DNA of 64,000 nucleotides. It comes from Squalus acanthias (Eukaryota). The translations under genes were made by a program, and so were the position numbers. Positions 16,801 to 48,768 of the stretch are shown piece by piece; the first letter of the stretch is position 1; every line of letters begins with the position of its first letter. The notes below the pieces were generated by a model that saw only the letters and a list, made by a program, of their open reading frames with translations, made no database searches and was not told the DNA's origin. The DNA is taken from positions 17,858,001 through 17,922,000 of the forward strand of contig CM059432.1 of the NCBI GenBank assembly GCA_030390025.1. Reading direction: 5' to 3'.

Positions 16801-17494
16801 GGGGGAAAAATTGGGTTGCTTTGCGCCTTCCGTTTAACGGGGCGCAAAGCCCCTAGCGTCTGGGCGCGGTGCCGCTAACGCCTCCCGCGAAATTCAGTGG
16901 GAAGCGTTAGTGGCGGCGGGAGCTGATAGCACCCCGCCGCACTGTGCCTCCGGCAATGGCGTCATCGCCGTGCGCAGCGCCCCGCTCGTGCCCCGGCCGC
17001 AAACTTCAGTTGCGCCCCCTGACCTATCGCCGGACGATATGTCCGACAGGGTCAGGGTGATGGTTTGCAGCCGCGGCGACGCAATTTAAAGGGCAGGTGC
17101 CGGGCGGCCATTTTTATTTTGGCCGACTGCCAGCACCTGCCCCTTCCCCTTTTTTATGCGGGGTGCCGGTCGTGATCGCTCAGCCCGGCACTCCTGCTCT
17201 CTCGGCACACTGCTCCCCGGTGGTCCAGCAAGGCCCCGGTGCACGCTGTGCTAGGCTCCTCCTCTTTAATCAGGGGAGGGAGGCCTGCAATACGTGCATT
17301 GCGCTGTTGCACGTAGCGCCGCTGCGATATTCACTTGTAGCTCCCCAGGAAGGAGGGGGAGCGCTTCCAATAGCGTCCCGCTCCCTCTTGGGGCGCTACC
17401 ACTGAATTTACGGCACAGGGGCGCTAACTTTTTCGGGAAGTAGCACCCCAGCGAAGTTAGTGCCCCAAAGGGGGCACCACTGAATTTTTCCCCC
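16801..17494. mobile_element. Harbinger MITE
   Basis: TIR GGGGGAAAAATT at both ends, perfect TSD CTT, GC-rich with GCGCC/GGCGCTAA motifs. Confidence 0.9.
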
Positions 17495-41189: not shown

Positions 41190-42453
41190 CCTGGAGGGGT
41201 CAAGGACTGAATCTATTTGGTTAGAGTTAAGAAACAATAGAGGTGCCATTACACTATTAGATGTATTCTATAGGCCACCTAATAGTGGGAAGGATATAGA
41301 GGAGCAAATTTGCAGGGAAATTACAGAGAGGTGCAAGAACTATAGAGTAGTGATAATGGGGGACTTCAATTATCCTAATATAGACTGGGATAGTAATAGT
41401 GTAAAGGGCAGAGAGGGGGAAGAATTTCTGAAGTGTGTTCAGGAGAGCTTTCTTGATCAGTATGTTTCCGGCCCAACGAGGCAGGAGGCATTGCTGGATC
41501 TGGTTCTGGGGAATGAGATGGATCAGGTGGATCAAATGTCAATAGGTGAACAGCGATCATAGTATCATAAGGTTTAGATTAGCCATGGAAAAGGACAGGG
41601 AGCAATCTAGAGTTAAAATACTTAGGGGGAGAAATTCGGTGGGTTAGCGCCTCCCGTTAGCGCCCCTGGGGGGCGCTAAAGGGGCACTAACGACTTACCG
41701 CCTGGGCACGGCGAGATGAACGACTCCCGCCAACTTGGCCGGGAGGTTTGCAGCGGCAGTAACACTTTGCGTCACGATTTCCTGCACCCAGAGATCGTGA
41801 CATCATTGCCGTGCGCATCGCCCCGGTAGCGCCCCGGACCCGAACTTCGGTTCCGCCCCCTGCAGCATCGCCGGGCGAAAACACCGACAGCTGCAGGAGG
41901 CGTTATTCGGGAGGCCGGGCGCTTCAGGGGCGGAAGTTAAAGGGGAGGTTGCCAAGGTCAGTAGGAACATTTCTAAAATGCTTTTTTTCAATTTTTTTCA
42001 AATCTCCTGAGCCGCGATCGATCAGCCTGGCACTCTGCTGGAGTGCATGAGGCTGATCGGGCCGGATCATGGCTTTCGTCGGGGACCAGCTAACTGGTCC
42101 CAATGCAAAGCCTGCAGCAATGGCCCTTCCCTTTAAGGGGGGGGGAAGGAACCTCAGATTGCGGCAGCGCTGCACGGCCCATTGTGCAGCACTGCACCAC
42201 TACCGCCCCGCCTGCGTCCTTCAGCGCTCCAGGAAGGAAGTGGAGCGCTTGATTTAGCTCCACTTCCTTCCTGGAGCGCAAACACCGAATTTTGCAAGAG
42301 CTGGGAATCATTAGCGCTTGGCACTAAGTTTCCCAGCTTGCAAAAGCTACCGCCCCCAAACGGGACAGTATCGAATTTCCCCCCCTTAATTGGAGGAGGG
42401 TCAATTTCAGTGGGTTGAGAACAGATCTGGCCCGGGTAAATTGGAATCAAAGA
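41190..42453 (+). mobile_element. CR1 endonuclease-region fragment, interrupted by the MITE at 41625-42385
   Basis: IMGDFNYPNIDW...LLDLVLGN; the reading continues across the TTA TSD. Confidence 0.8.
41625..42385. mobile_element. Harbinger MITE
   Basis: TIR GGGGGAGAAATT / GGGGGGGAAATT(rc), TSD TTA. It interrupts a CR1 ORF2. Shares gcgcctcccgttagcgcc with the autonomous element. Confidence 0.9.
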
Positions 42454-42970
42454 GTCATGGGGGTAAAAATTCAGTTGGTTGCGCCTCCCGTTAGCGCCTT
42501 AAGAGGGCGCTAATGGGGCGCAAAGCCGCTAACGCCCGGGCGCAGCGATGTTTGCGCCGCTCGGGAACTTAACTAGAGATTGTGCGGCGGCGCTAAACTT
42601 TACCGCTACGACCACCTGCGCGCGCAGATTGTGACGTCATTCCATGGTGCAACGCCCTTGTGGCGCCCCGGAGCGGAAATTGAGTGGCGCCCCCTGCCTT
42701 ACCGCCTGGCGCATCCAACGACCGGAAGACTGGAACGCTATCAATCGCTGTGGGGCTGGGGGGGGCGCTATTTAAAGGGGGCCTCTTCCTGTCTTTTTCT
42801 GTGGTTGACATTTTTGCACCACTCGTTCTGAGAGAGAGAGAGAGATTCGGAGAGAGAGAAAGAGAGACTTCTGCATTGAGTCAACGCTTTGTGAGGTAGT
42901 TTTGCCTACTGATCCTAACTTCGCTAGTACTTTAGTTGCTGTCCTTCATTACTTTGCTTGCAAAGAGACT

Positions 42971-44131
42971 ATGGGGGCTGCACTGATTGGGGGCGTCGTC
43001 CTGCTCCAGCTGAATCGGAGGACACAGAGACGCAGAGAGAGAGTGGCAATGATGGCCAGACGGAGGAGGGCCAACAGGCGTATGTACAGGAGAGCTTACC
43101 CTCCCAGGGTATATCGTGAACAGCTCTCCTACATTCATATGTCTGAGGAGCTGTGTTTGCGAAGGCTGCGATTCAGCAAGGAGGTGGTCACTGAGCTCTG
43201 CCACCTGCTGCAGCCAGATCTGCAGCCTCAACTGAGGTCCAGGACGTCTCTGTCGGTGGCAGTGAAGGTCACAGTGGCTCTCAACTTCTACGCTACTGGC
43301 TCATTTCAAGCTGCTGCTGGGGACCTCGCCAATATCTCCCAGTTCGCGGTGCATTGCTGCATCCGGCAGGTCACAAATGCCCTCTTTAAAAGGAGACGAG
43401 AATTCATCTCTTTCCCCATGACCCCAGACAAGCAGCGTGACCGCACTCTGGGCTTTGCGAGGATAGCGGGCTTCCCCATGGTGCAGGGCGCCATTGACTG
43501 CACGCATGTGGCTTTGCGTGCTCCGCATGAGAATGCCGAGGAATTCCGGAACAGAAAGGGGTTCCATTCCTTGAATGTTCAGTTGGTCTGTGACCACAGA
43601 CAGCTGATACTCGCTGTCAATGCCCACTATCCTGGCAGCTGCCACGATGCTTTTATCCTGCGCCAGACTACTGTGGCAGAACTTTTCGAGGCACCGCATC
43701 AGCCAGTTGGTTGGCTTCTCGGGGACAAGGGGTATGCATTGAGCACCTGGCTGATGACACCGCTCTGTACGCCCAACACCCCTGCTGAGCTGCGGTACAA
43801 TGAGAGCCATCAAGCTACCAGGAACATAATTGAGCGCACAATCGGCGTGCTGAAGCAACGGTTCCGCTGTCTCGACCATTCTGGAGGAGCCCTGCAGTAC
43901 TCGCCTGAGCGAGTATCCAACTTCGTAGTTGTGTGCTGCATGTTGCATAACATGGCAATCGTCAGGACCCAGCCAATGCCACCAGGCCTTGGAGCACCAC
44001 CAGAGGAGGAGGAGGAAGAGGAGGAAGAGGACGAGGAGGATGATCATCAGCAGCACCAAGGCGGGAGGGCGGCCCACAATGGTGAAACTGCAAGGGCCGT
44101 CCGTCAACGGCTAATAGCAAGCCGCTTCTAG
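42971..44131 (+). CDS. Harbinger (HARBI1-like) DDE transposase, 386 aa, uninterrupted
   Basis: Motifs GFPMVQGAIDCTH, RNRKGFHSLNVQLVCD, YPGSCHDAFIL, LLGDKGY, RNIIERTIGVLKQRFRCL and CCMLHN. N-terminal HTH region (VALNFYATGSFQ) and acidic tail. First ATG at 42971, TAG at 44129-44131. Confidence 0.95.
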   Translation: MGAALIGGVVLLQLNRRTQRRRERVAMMARRRRANRRMYRRAYPPRVYREQLSYIHMSEELCLRRLRFSKEVVTELCHLLQPDLQPQLRSRTSLSVAVKVTVALNFYATGSFQAAAGDLANISQFAVHCCIRQVTNALFKRRREFISFPMTPDKQRDRTLGFARIAGFPMVQGAIDCTHVALRAPHENAEEFRNRKGFHSLNVQLVCDHRQLILAVNAHYPGSCHDAFILRQTTVAELFEAPHQPVGWLLGDKGYALSTWLMTPLCTPNTPAELRYNESHQATRNIIERTIGVLKQRFRCLDHSGGALQYSPERVSNFVVVCCMLHNMAIVRTQPMPPGLGAPPEEEEEEEEEDEEDDHQQHQGGRAAHNGETARAVRQRLIASRF

Positions 44132-44564
44132 GGCCCCTGCTGTGGAAATGGCTTCTGCCATTGCTAACAACATCAATGAACCCAGCACGCAACCCCTAAG
44201 CCGGCCAAGGCACCAATAATTCCAAACACCAACCATGTATATTTTGAATACAGAAACTTATTTATTTTACAAACTCTGTGTGTGTCAATTCCTCATGACA
44301 AACTCATAGAAATAAACACAAAAAAACAGTCAATAACATAACTGGTTCTCACAACCTGGAGATAATGTCCAAAACACTAAACAAAAGTTGGACCATGAAC
44401 CTCGACCTTTAATAAAAAAATGACCAGCATTTTGTCACACCTCCTACTTTTTGCCCTTCGAGGGTGATCTCCTTCCCTTGCGCACTTCCCCCCTTCTAAC
44501 CCTACTGCTCCTCCGTAATGGGACCTCAGTGGCTGCAGCAAGGCTGGTGGAAGGCTGCTGCTCG

Positions 44565-46372
44565 TCAGACCCTGACACTGCAGATGCCCCCTGAAGGACG
44601 GCCTCGACCAGTTCTGGGCCTGGAGGGCCCGGCTGCAGACTGCACCAACTCTGCATGGGCGGCAGCAGTCTGTCCTACAGGCGGTGGCAAGTGCAGTGGA
44701 GAAGTGACAGTGTTGGCAGCAGGAATGCTGTCATCGTGAGAGAGGACAGCAACTCCCTGCTCGCCCGACACACTGGCACTCCCACGGGGCAGCACTTCAG
44801 CATCCGGAGCATTCTGCTGGAGAACAGATTGCTGGCCTGCTGCGGCGCGGTGAGAGCCCCGGGGACATGTGAACGAACCATCGAGGTTGGCAGCAGTCTG
44901 TGCTCGCGTGGCCTCAATCTGAGTCTGCATGAGAGCAGTCAGAGATGGGATCACGGCAGCCAGTGACTGAATTGCAGCACTAAGCGTTAGTGTGGCATCC
45001 GCCTGTGCTACAGCGAAGTGCTCCACACTCCTTGCCAGTGACTCAATGCATTCGGGCACCCTTCCCACTGCACCCATGAGCTCAGTGTGCATGCCCACCG
45101 CCTGGGTGTTCATTTCTGCGATCAGCCGCTCCTCCTCTGCGTCCATTGCAGTAGGAGTCGCTGGCATACTCTCCCTCTGGGGAGAAGGCCCCCGTTCTTC
45201 CCTACCCCCATGGCGTTGCTGCAGCCCGCTGGGTCCTGGAGCTTCACCCTCATCAGACCCTTCCCCCCTGCTCCCCTCCAGGGAAGGCGTGTTCCCAGTG
45301 TGGGCATGGGCTTCCTCGGGAGAGGGTGGCACTGATGCTCCGGCTTCCTCTTCCTCCTCGGCTGCAGCTTCACTCCCAGTGGCAGCTTCAGGGCCCGTCT
45401 CCTCAGCTGGTGAATCACCATCTGAAAGCAGGGAGGTACAAGAGTGGCTTTAGCGTGAGGACAGGGTGGCAGTAAGGGAGGAATAAGTGCAGCGAGTTAG
45501 CAAGTTGGATTGAAAGTGTCAAAGGCTGGTGTTGTGAGGGACAAGTGGAAGGACAGAGGACAAAAAGGTGATGACCTTACCATTGCTGTCCAGAACGGGG
45601 TCGGCGTCTCCAGTGGCGACGGGACCGATCACCCGGCTTGCCACAATCCTGTGGACGCGCTCCTCAAGATCGCTGAGGGGTTGCAGCTGAGGCCGCCCTC
45701 CACCTGTCCGTTGCTGCTGTCTCCTATTATGCGCCAGCTTGGCCTGCAAGAAAAAGGACAGCATCTGAGTAAATATACAGCCATGGTCTTGCCTGATGTG
45801 CCTCCCATAGGTGAATAGCCCTTACTGTATACAGCCATGGTCTTGCCTGATGTGCCTCCCATAGGTGAATAGCCCTTACTGTATGCAGCCATGGTCTTGC
45901 CTGATGTGCCTCCCATAGGTGAATAGCCCTTACTGTATGCAGCCATGGTCTTGCCTGATGTGCCTCCCATAGGTGAATAGCCCTTACTGTATGCAAAGTG
46001 TGGAATGTATGTGTGTGTTTCATGAAAGGGCCATAGGTGTTGGATGAGTGTTGTGCATTGGGGTTTTAAGACCCTCTGGCCATAGAGTGAGGTTGAGATG
46101 GAGGGATGGAGAGGTATTGAGAAAAAGCCATTCACCCTGACGACCCGAGTGAGGTCGTTGAACTTTTTGCGGCATTGAGTATGGGTCCTGGGCACCATGC
46201 TCCTAGAGGAGACGCTCTGAGCCACCTCCCTCCACACTCTTCTGTACTCGCGTGGCAAAGGCCTCCTGCCACTCTCAGGGAAGAGTATACATCTTCTGCG
46301 CTCCACCGCGCCAACCAGAGCATCCAAGCCCCACTCGGTGAAGCGATGAGCTCGTTCTCTCACCCTCTCCAT
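44565..46372 (-). CDS. Harbinger Myb/SANT-like DNA-binding protein, 3 exons: 46372-46136, 45743-45581, 45421-44565 (~418 aa)
   Basis: Exon 1 MERVRERAHRFTEWGLDALV...VWREVAQSVSSRSMVPRTHTQCRKKFNDL is a trihelix/Myb-like domain. GT-AG introns with consistent phases (0 and 1). Exon 2 begins AKLAHNRRQQQRTGGG; exon 3 has acidic and coiled-coil-like regions. Confidence 0.85.
45774..45995. repeat. 54-bp minisatellite, 4 full copies plus 6 bp, in intron 1 of the Harbinger Myb-like gene
   Basis: Unit tatRcagccatggtcttgcctgatgtgcctcccataggtgaatagcccttactg at 45774, 45828, 45882 and 45936. Confidence 0.95.
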
Positions 46373-46731
46373 CCTTGGCAGCAAAATGGATTCACAGGTC
46401 TCTCCAGGCCGAGATTCAAGGCTGCAATGAGCAGGGTGTGGCTGGGGAGCAAGTTGGCCCCCCCCGCTTTAAGAAGTGGCCGGCGCCAGTGTGTCTGTGT
46501 TCCCTCGCTAACTGGCAGCAGCTGCGCTGCGCTCGCGCGCTGAGTTAGCGCCTCACTGCTCGGCCTTTGCGCCTTAAGACAGGTGTGCAGCGCCTGATTT
46601 AGCGCTCCACTCACCTCCCGGGGCGGTAAAAGTGAAGTTTCCAGTCAGTGGCGATAATTAGCGCCAGGCGCTAATATTTGCGTCCAGACGATATTTGCGC
46701 CCCAAATGGGGCGCGACCTAATTTTTCCCCC

Positions 46732-48768
46732 ATAGAGTCATAACAGCACAGAGGAGGCCATTCGGCCCATCGAGTCTGTGCCGGCTCTCTGTGGAGCAAT
46801 CCAGTCAGTCCCATTTCCCCATCTCTATCTCCGTAGCCCTGCAAGTTTATTTCCCTCAAGTGCCTCTCCAGTCTCCCCTTGAAAACATTGAGTGTCTCCG
46901 CTTCCGCCACTTCCGTCGGCAGCGAGTTCCAGGTCCTCACCACTCGCTGCATAAAAAGGTTTTTCATCACATCCCCCTTGTATCTCTTGCCCAAATCTTA
47001 AATCTGTGTCCCCAAGTCCTTGTACCATCAACTAGTGGGAACAGCCTTTCCCCGTCTAGCCTATCCAAACCCGTCATAATCTTGTACACCTCTATCAAGT
47101 CACCCCTCAACTTCCTTTGCTCTAATGAAAACAAAGCCAGCTTCTCCAATCTGTCCTTGTAGCTAAGATCCCCCATCCCCGGAACCATTCTGGTAAATCT
47201 CCTCTGCACCCTCTCAAGTGCCTTCACATCCTTCCTAACGTGTGGTGACCAGAACTGGACGCAATACTCTAGTTATGGCCTAACCAGCGCTTTATAAAGG
47301 TTCAGCATAACTTCTCTACTTTTGTACTCATTTATTTATGAAGCCCAAGATCCCATATGCTTTGTTAACCACTCTCTCAATATGTCCCGCCACCTTCAGG
47401 GACTTATGCACATAAACTCCCAGGTCCCTCTGTCCCTGCACATTCTTTAAAACTGTGCCATTAAGTGTATATTGCCTCTCCCTGTTCCTTCTGCCAAAAT
47501 GCATCACCTCACACTTCTCTGTATTAAATTCCATCTGCCACTTGTCTGCCCATTCTGCTAGCCTTTCTATGTCCTGTTGCAGTCGATTGGTATCATCCTC
47601 ACTGTTTGCCACACCCCCAAGTTTGGTGTCATTGGCAAATTTAGAAATTCTACTCTGTATTCCAATATCCAGGTCCTTTATATATATCAAAAAAAGCGGT
47701 GGCCCCAGCACTGACCCTTGGGGAACACCACTGTCTACCATCCTCTAGTCTGAAAAACAGCCATTTACCACAACTCGCTGTTTTCTGTCCTTAAGACAAC
47801 TCCTTTTCCAAGCTGCCACTGACCCACCTATTCCATGAGCCTCATAGAATCATAGAATCATAGAAGATAGGAGCTGGAGTAGGCCATTCGGCCCTTCTAG
47901 CCTGCTCCGCCATTCAATGCGATCATGGCTGATCATCCAAATTCATTACCCTGTCCCTGCTTTCTCCCCATATCCTTGATCCCTTTAGCCTTAAGAAATA
48001 TATCCAACTCCTTCTTGAATCTATTCAATGAATTAGCCTCTACTGCCTTCCATGGCAGAGAATTCCACAGGTTCACCACTCTCTGGGTGAAGAAATTCCT
48101 CCTCATTTCTGTCCTAAATGGCTTACCACTTATCCTTAGACTGTGACCCCTGGTTCTGGACTCCCCGACCATCGGGAACATCCTTCCTGCATCTAGTTTG
48201 TCCTGTCCTGTCAGAATTTTATAAGTTTCAATGAGATCCCCTCTCATTCTTCTAAATTCCAGCGAGTATAAGCCCAATCGACCCAATCTCTCTTCATACG
48301 TCATTCCTGCCATCCCAGGTATCAGCCTTGTGAATCTTCGCTGAACTCCTTCCATGGCAAGAACATCCTTCCTCAGATAATTTTGTTAACCAGCCTTCTA
48401 TGTGGTACTTTGTCAAACGCCTTCCAAAAATCCATGTAGACAACATCCATTGCATCAATCCTCCCTGTTACTTCATCAAAAAATTCAACTAGATTAGTCA
48501 AACACGATCTGCCTTTTACAAATCCGTGTTGGCTCTCCTTAATTAGCTTAAACCTCTCCAAGTGCCCATTAATTTTTTCCTTAATTATTGTTTCTAAAAC
48601 TTTACCCACCACTGATGTTAAATTGACCGGCCTCTAGTTACTAGGATTGTCCTTACACACTTTCTTGAACAATGGTGTCACATTTGCTACTTTCCAATCC
48701 CCAGGTACCTCCCCCGCATCTAGGGAAGATTGGAAAACTATGGCAAGCCCTTCCGCTATCTCCTCCCT
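46732..48768 (-). mobile_element. CR1 fragments: 46732-47843 and 48375-48768, with a nested CR1 3' end at 47844-48374
   Basis: RT ORFs at 46967-47227, 47328-47741, 47933-48355 and 48373-48612; two CR1 tails. Confidence 0.8.

Follow-up and report, generated by a model that had tools for sequence, protein, structure and literature searches.

A full-length, near-consensus yet slightly decayed PIF/Harbinger transposon in the genome of Squalus acanthias

We analysed a 64,000-nucleotide stretch of the Squalus acanthias genome (GenBank assembly GCA_030390025.1, contig CM059432.1, positions 17,858,001 to 17,922,000 of the forward strand; hereafter the window, numbered from its first nucleotide), in which a first-pass annotation had placed a structurally complete two-gene Harbinger transposon. 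At positions 42460-46731 we found a full-length Harbinger element of 4272 bp carrying two convergent genes, one encoding a transposase and the other a Myb/SANT-like protein (Table 1). The element is a near-consensus yet slightly decayed copy and not a demonstrated active element, and its history is probably that of a full-length insertion of a high-copy, elasmobranch-type family of PIF/Harbinger in the broad sense, which has since begun to decay. The description as a structurally complete two-component system is not supported, given a +1 frameshift in the Myb gene, an imperfect target-site duplication (TSD) and near-private missense changes.

The element is bounded by 12-bp terminal inverted repeats (TIRs) that agree at 11 of 12 positions, inward of which the two ends show little likeness. 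Among 20 end registers compared, 42460-46731 gave the highest TIR match, and two MITEs (miniature transposable elements with inverted repeats) in the window, which have the same end type together with perfect triplet duplications, fix the same register for the element; the TIRs and the boundaries first proposed are thereby confirmed. A register at 42459-46730, with CAT as the sole perfect triplet among the 20, was rejected because its ends are asymmetric and its TIR match is 7/12. In the best register the flanking triplets are ATG and ATA, so that two of the three bases of the 3-bp TSD claimed for the element agree and a perfect duplication is not borne out. In sequencing run X12, one contig connects the left end of another copy, its junction falling precisely at 42460, with a flank whose last letters are TAT, which is the ATA of the right flank here in reverse complement, and because this flank reads like the reverse of our right flank we took ATA as the target triplet, of which the left ATG is probably a once-mutated copy. 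The LINE (long interspersed nuclear element) at the right flank is presumably a CR1 element. Further contigs join the left end of the element to LINE-tail or LINE-body sequence (42450, 46892), which represents more insertions into the same host repeat. With regard to insertion polymorphism, both flanks are repeats and the contigs are short, and none of the joints listed skips the element. The ratio of observed to expected CpG is 1.0 at the left end (42460-42970) and 0.81 at the right end (46373-46731), compared to 0.45 window-wide.

The transposase open reading frame (ORF) is free of stops over 386 amino acids (aa), and its product matches the Pfam profile DDE_Tnp_4 over positions 1-158 of 158 (E 8e-40; 136 bits against a cut-off of 24.8). 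The protein agrees with all 92 columns that are conserved at 80% or more among 120 homologues, and the proposed catalytic residues, rather than being misaligned, are the majority letters at their positions (D176 in 98 of 117 homologues, D226 in 81 of 115, D252 in 93 of 114 and E288 in 75 of 117), so that the open DDE transposase of the first-pass annotation stands. A structural model built from a 67-row alignment (pLDDT, the predicted local distance difference test score, of 90) has D176 within a strand, D252 directly behind a short one and E288 in a helix that is long, whereas a single-sequence fold reached a pLDDT of 37 and was not used. Compared to known structures, the alignment-based fold gave weak matches to piggyBac (the best, E 0.011), Tn5, TnsB and integrases, none of them at E≤0.001, and no solved structure related by sequence was found. 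The top protein homologues in a set of 435 matches all come from sharks and rays, with a best identity of 66%, and include two Pristiophorus japonicus proteins annotated as 'putative nuclease HARBI1' (P0001 and P0002; 61-66% identity). A quick version of the transposase tree, with 43 rows, placed the query in a nine-row clade of sawshark and ray proteins with a support of 99. This spread of relatives across sharks and rays points to vertical descent; in the JGI metagenomes, 622 pattern matches for protein relatives yielded none that was confirmed, and none was found by the end pattern either.

The Myb gene consists of three exons separated by GT-AG introns, and its predicted splicing is in frame and gives a product of 418 aa. 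Its first exon encodes a Myb_DNA-bind_5 domain (E 4e-9; 36.6 bits against a cut-off of 21.7), and the spliced product aligns with P0125 over residues 5-410 at 37% identity (E 5e-82). At junction 1 (46136/45743) the homologues P0125 and P0129 cross ungapped and P0124 joins, and all three continue through junction 2 (45581/45421); four elasmobranch proteins annotated as 'uncharacterized protein' (P0122, P0124, P0125 and P0128) have the same exon layout and C-terminal tail. Both predicted junctions are thus supported by homology to predicted shark proteins rather than by RNA. In run X8, which may be RNA and which covers the introns and the flanks, one contig runs through intron 2 without splicing, and the 15 of 152 joints listed include no splice joint of the Myb gene. 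The predicted exons, introns and in-frame splicing of the convergent gene stood up to analysis and its completeness did not, owing to a frameshift in exon 3. Separately, the first ~120 residues of P0130, a Heptranchias perlo protein annotated as V-set and immunoglobulin domain-containing, resemble Harbinger Myb exon 3, which may reflect a gene-model fusion or exonisation.

The frameshift lies in a run of five Cs that is one base longer here than in contigs of the family. Contigs in all four runs aligned omit one base at 44587 (24 in X1, 12 in X2 and one each in X8 and X12), and they account for 31%, 86%, 51% and 53% of the summed depth in these runs, respectively. The four homologues that reach the end of exon 3 (P0122, P0124, P0125 and P0128) all change frame here: their alignments keep to one frame as far as 44592-44595 and carry on in the next, reaching about 44450-44490, with next-frame E-values of 3e-4, 2e-5, 7e-6 and 0.016, respectively; this check took in seven of the nine homologue matches and left out two long ones (P0123 and P0126). 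In the family frame the Myb protein has 458 aa, of which 411 are left in this copy, the last 47 residues (12 of them lysine or arginine) being swapped for seven others. The lost basic tail may be a nuclear localisation signal; for Harbinger3_DR of zebrafish, transposase nuclear import is described as requiring the Myb protein (PMC2836001, PMC9710019). As assembled, this copy lacks the two intact ORFs that Han et al. 2015 ask of a potentially active element. A sister subfamily diverges at 44560, just past the frameshift site, and appears as loose ends in 72 contigs of X1, 118 of X2 and nine of X8.

Table 1. Positions of the Harbinger element, its parts and related features in the window
Feature	Position	Strand	Basis
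Left flank triplet ATG, probably once-mutated copy of target ATA	42457..42459	+	register and X12 loose end
Left TIR, 12 bp	42460..42471	+	11/12 against right TIR
Left subterminal region, 3x TTAGCGC (candidate Myb-binding motif, putative role)	42491..42596	.	
Transposase ORF, intronless, 386 aa; D176, D226, D252, E288; acidic C-terminal tail	42971..44131	+	ORF, Pfam, alignment, model
Facing AATAAA, candidate poly(A) signals of both convergent genes	44261..44316 (minus 44261, plus 44311)	.	sequence scan
Out-of-frame 47-codon basic tail (12 K/R), the family's Myb C-terminus	44444..44587	-	homologue alignment
Myb exon 3 in this copy's own reading frame (stop at 44565)	44565..45421	-	splice prediction, homologues
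Five-C run, one base over family contigs (frameshift)	44587..44591	.	contigs of four runs; homologues
Myb exon 2	45581..45743	-	splice prediction, homologues
54-bp tandem array within Myb intron 1, 4.1 copies, 99% matches	45774..45995	.	repeat scan
Myb exon 1, Myb/SANT-like domain; W14, G15 against family R, A	46136..46372	-	Pfam, contigs
Right subterminal region, 4x TTAGCGC	46545..46674	.	motif scan
Right TIR	46720..46731	-	11/12 against left TIR
Right flank triplet ATA, within short-repeat tail of minus-strand LINE	46732..46734	+	sequence
Near-private substitutions	42608, 43445, 43766, 44812, 46009, 46131, 46205, 46329, 46333	.	both DNA runs
761-bp MITE, same TIR type, TSD TTA/TTA; 65-70% like element ends	41625..42385	+	sequence; empty-site contigs
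694-bp MITE, perfect 12-bp TIR, TSD CTT/CTT; 62-64% like element ends	16801..17494	+	sequence

The family to which this copy belongs is abundant. Among 23 runs listed, 18 contain 62-89% of the sampled words of the element, several of them runs of only 34-173 million letters, and in two DNA runs, X1 and X2, 58,993 and 87,997 contigs, respectively, align to a 5.7-kb stretch that includes the flanks. Dividing summed depth by 31 and by single-copy depth gives ~500-2400 copies, a crude order of magnitude because summed depth is not a copy number, and crudely the family has hundreds to thousands of copies. Read depth is higher over both element ends than over the interior, as expected with non-autonomous derivatives. 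The family also lies close to the copy studied here: six listed pieces of X12 inside the element differ from it at 11 of 1788 letters and one gap (0.6%), and six of eight pieces of X8 differ at 11 of 1280 letters (0.9%, a figure that excludes two pieces of lower depth, one with 12 differences and the other with 13, taken as the sister subfamily, and that becomes 2.2% with them). At no fewer than nine positions (listed in Table 1), at least 98.7% of the depth in each of the two DNA runs carries a different letter, and five of the nine near-private changes alter residues: T159 (A in others) and C266 (R) in the transposase, and W14 (R), G15 (A) and N337 (I) in the Myb protein. None of the seven transposase and seven Myb exon variants examined creates a stop, and four of 24 checked differences are of the CpG type.

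These distances bear on the proposal that the family is young. In percent divergence the proposal holds. At the mutation rate given for the epaulette shark, 7e-10 per site per generation (PMC10587355), 0.6-0.9% corresponds to some 9-12 million generations, with 4-6 million obtained at the upper confidence bound. This is an upper-range figure, because CpG sites mutate more quickly and some of the differences are subfamily letters passed on by inheritance. Since sharks mutate slowly, low divergence need not mean recent movement, and the recency implied by 'young' is not borne out. Runs labelled organism B, from three studies, contain 62-72% of the element's words, similar to small runs of organism A. 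Two runs with the same organism label and study, X15 and X23, contain 0.64 and 0.00 of the element's words, respectively. Signal in runs labelled organisms C-F was considered as spread to other species and rejected; X12, the one run among these that was aligned, has only 175 contigs, with a LINE flank depth equal to that of the element, and its signal probably reflects a low level of shark DNA within a different sample. Two metatranscriptome runs with word shares of 0.05-0.06 do not count as evidence of spread.

By sequence, the element falls within the broad definition of PIF/Harbinger save for its imperfect TSD, having a DDE_Tnp_4 transposase with an acidic triad, a Myb/SANT gene, TIRs and a multi-copy family as judged by run words and contigs. 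Han et al. 2015 distinguish groups by target, with TWA for PIF/Harbinger in the narrow sense, CWG for NuwaI and C|TNA|G for NuwaII (PMC4482050). The narrow TWA is not matched by the ATA found here, the two MITEs having CTT and TTA; CWG is found at none of the three sites, whereas a TIR beginning with GGG does fit NuwaI, whose TIRs are described as usually beginning so (PMC4482050); and the site C|ATA|G has the flanks of NuwaII and not its triplet. Three sites of three families are too few to found a new group. Compared by description only, the zebrafish element Harbinger3_DR (named NuwaI-2_DRer by Han et al. 2015; PMC3016246, PMC2836001, PMC9710019, PMC4482050) resembles the shark element in its length of about 4.2 kb, its 12-bp TIR and its pairing of DDE_Tnp_4 with Myb_DNA-bind_5. 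It differs in its CWG target as opposed to ATA, in its Myb protein of 221 aa as opposed to 458 aa in the family frame here, and in that its activity is described as demonstrated after reconstruction, whereas the shark element is known from sequence alone. Harbinger-Snek of sea kraits (PMC8437027) is likewise described as a natural vertebrate two-ORF element of very high copy number with non-autonomous derivatives, and it differs in what has been reported for it: 269 copies that are fully intact in a single species, RNA covering both ORFs, and horizontal transfer. Rice Ping/Pong, which with mPing also needs two proteins and is described as moving MITEs in trans, including by a related element, differs in being a plant system with proven natural activity (PMC2836001). 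The elasmobranch relatives labelled 'putative nuclease HARBI1' or 'uncharacterized protein' belong to other families and are annotated as genes, not as elements. Domesticated Harbinger relatives have been described (PMC9392472), and several short-branched HARBI1-like clades that span shark and ray orders (e.g. P0026/P0029/P0067, P0042/P0043 and P0010/P0013) are candidate shark-specific domesticated transposases.

The first-pass annotation also saw in this element the likely driver of local MITEs. As a statement of descent this is not borne out: the ends of the two MITEs are only 62-70% identical to those of the element, compared to a spread of ~1% within the family, so they come from other, related families. 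The MITE nearer the element is itself an insertion, in that contigs of three runs skip 41620-42385 exactly and so represent the empty-site form of its LINE-like host repeat. All 12 matches to TTAGCGC in the window lie in the element ends (seven) or in the MITEs (five), against 2.9 expected by shuffle, although the motif was chosen by eye and the shuffle expectation is no fair test. By analogy with the subterminal 9-bp motif described for Harbinger3_DR (PMC9710019), TTAGCGC is a candidate Myb-binding site, and cross-mobilisation of the MITEs via a common TIR and subterminal motif is possible. Further 11/12 TIR matches occur at 2459, 7697, 9032, 10851 and 49274, two of them internal to another repeat. 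A decayed Myb-like remnant at 2186-2365 on the minus strand (Myb_DNA-bind_5, E 0.003, under the cut-off) converges with a transposase remnant at 4-129 on the plus strand, and the two probably belong to one older copy of a Harbinger that the start of the window truncates.

The element had further been located about 5 kb upstream of trpn1, a placement that our searches did not confirm. An exon-like frame at 37232-37080 on the minus strand, 5.2 kb from the element, found no homologue in PDB sequences or the ESM Atlas, nor in the protein collection, where neither of two candidates reached E≤1. An ankyrin exon at 28295-28188 on the minus strand matches NOMPC residues 126-152 but scores higher to ankyrins and DARPins; no additional ankyrin exons were found within the window. 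The trpn1 label fits vertebrate TRPN1 as we assume it to be, and is plausible rather than established. We saw no link between the element and regulation of the neighbouring gene.

If the shark element works as Harbinger3_DR and Ping/Pong do, its Myb protein would bind the subterminal motifs, for which TTAGCGC is the candidate, and take the transposase into the nucleus and onto the element ends, and the transposase would cut at the 12-bp TIRs and insert with a 3-bp duplication. This copy would have inserted at an ATA triplet in a LINE repeat tail and would later have seen one base of its left TSD change, picked up some nine or more private substitutions and undergone the one-base insertion in Myb exon 3 that replaces the last 47 residues with seven others. 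It has probably lost its self-sufficiency. The transposase frame remains open, and an intact helper, if one exists, could still move the ends of this copy in trans. Several observations weigh against this account of decay. The remainder of the depth at 44587 is unassigned and includes the sister subfamily that diverges at 44560; the extra C falls in a homopolymer, where it may be an artefact of assembly; the protein retains its Myb domain and most of its length, and no computed result speaks for a need for the lost tail; the transposase has an arginine-rich, basic N-terminus of its own; and 11,380 of the 58,993 contigs in X1 and 17,672 of the 87,997 in X2 are at least 99% like the stretch, flanks included, such that young copies may be present. 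One could hold that this very copy is still autonomous, with the extra base introduced in assembly or with a 418-aa Myb protein that works without its tail, and with the missense changes tolerated, a view that fits the open transposase with all catalytic residues present, the canonical splice sites, the homopolymer context of the lesion and the 411 of 458 Myb residues spared. We consider it improbable nonetheless, because about nine near-private substitutions and an altered TSD base indicate a residence time over which a real indel is unsurprising, two of the changes sit side by side at the beginning of the Myb domain, all four distant homologues that reach that point retain the tail, and the X8 contig is unspliced over intron 2 with no splice joint among the 15 of 152 joints listed.

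A different question is whether the whole family is extinct, the product of one old burst that looks youthful because sharks change slowly and that has left no intact expressed master. This concerns the family and is compatible with our account of the present copy as a decaying full-length insertion, and we give it somewhat less than an even chance. The 9-12 million generations (4-6 million at the upper bound) suit it, as do the organism B runs with 62-72% of the words, which are expected if the burst predates the species split. On the other hand, the majority letters carry no frameshift and no stop arises in the 7 + 7 variants, so that a family of hundreds or more probably includes intact copies; moreover, the rate was taken from another shark species, CpG sites change faster (4 of 24 differences) and subfamily structure may account for part of the distance. 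That intact master copies transpose in the shark today is, in our judgement, rather unlikely. Far less credible still is a domesticated HARBI1/NAIF1-like gene pair kept for a host function near trpn1, as might be read from the open transposase frame and the 'putative nuclease HARBI1' annotation of homologues: the TIRs are present, tens of thousands of variant contigs align to the stretch, the Myb gene is frameshifted, no relative in other sharks exceeds 66% identity, and the short-branched cross-species clades, which look like true conserved genes, exclude the query.

Harbinger/PHIS elements were reported by two surveys to be missing from sharks or from the elephant shark (PMC4482050, PMC9179366), and the available text of the later whale-shark and grey-reef-shark genome papers names Harbingers merely as a repeat class (PMC8455134, PMC12498223). 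We found no element-level description of a shark, elasmobranch or cartilaginous-fish Harbinger in the open-access literature, with Repbase and Dfam outside this scope. Intact natural vertebrate Harbingers are already known from sea kraits, as described in PMC8437027, and are therefore not new. If intact master copies do still transpose in this shark, the family would be an unreconstructed vertebrate two-component Harbinger with a 3-bp target (ATA, CTT, TTA) outside the TSD-defined PHIS groups, one spot in a LINE tail would have been targeted repeatedly, and MITEs with ends as distant as those seen here (60-70%) would have been cross-mobilised via the common TTAGCGC. This copy does not itself show activity, and if intact members of the family are active, two-protein transposition could be studied without reconstruction. 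As a near-consensus full-length sequence it makes a useful curated entry, one that accounts for many of the 'putative nuclease HARBI1' labels in shark proteomes.

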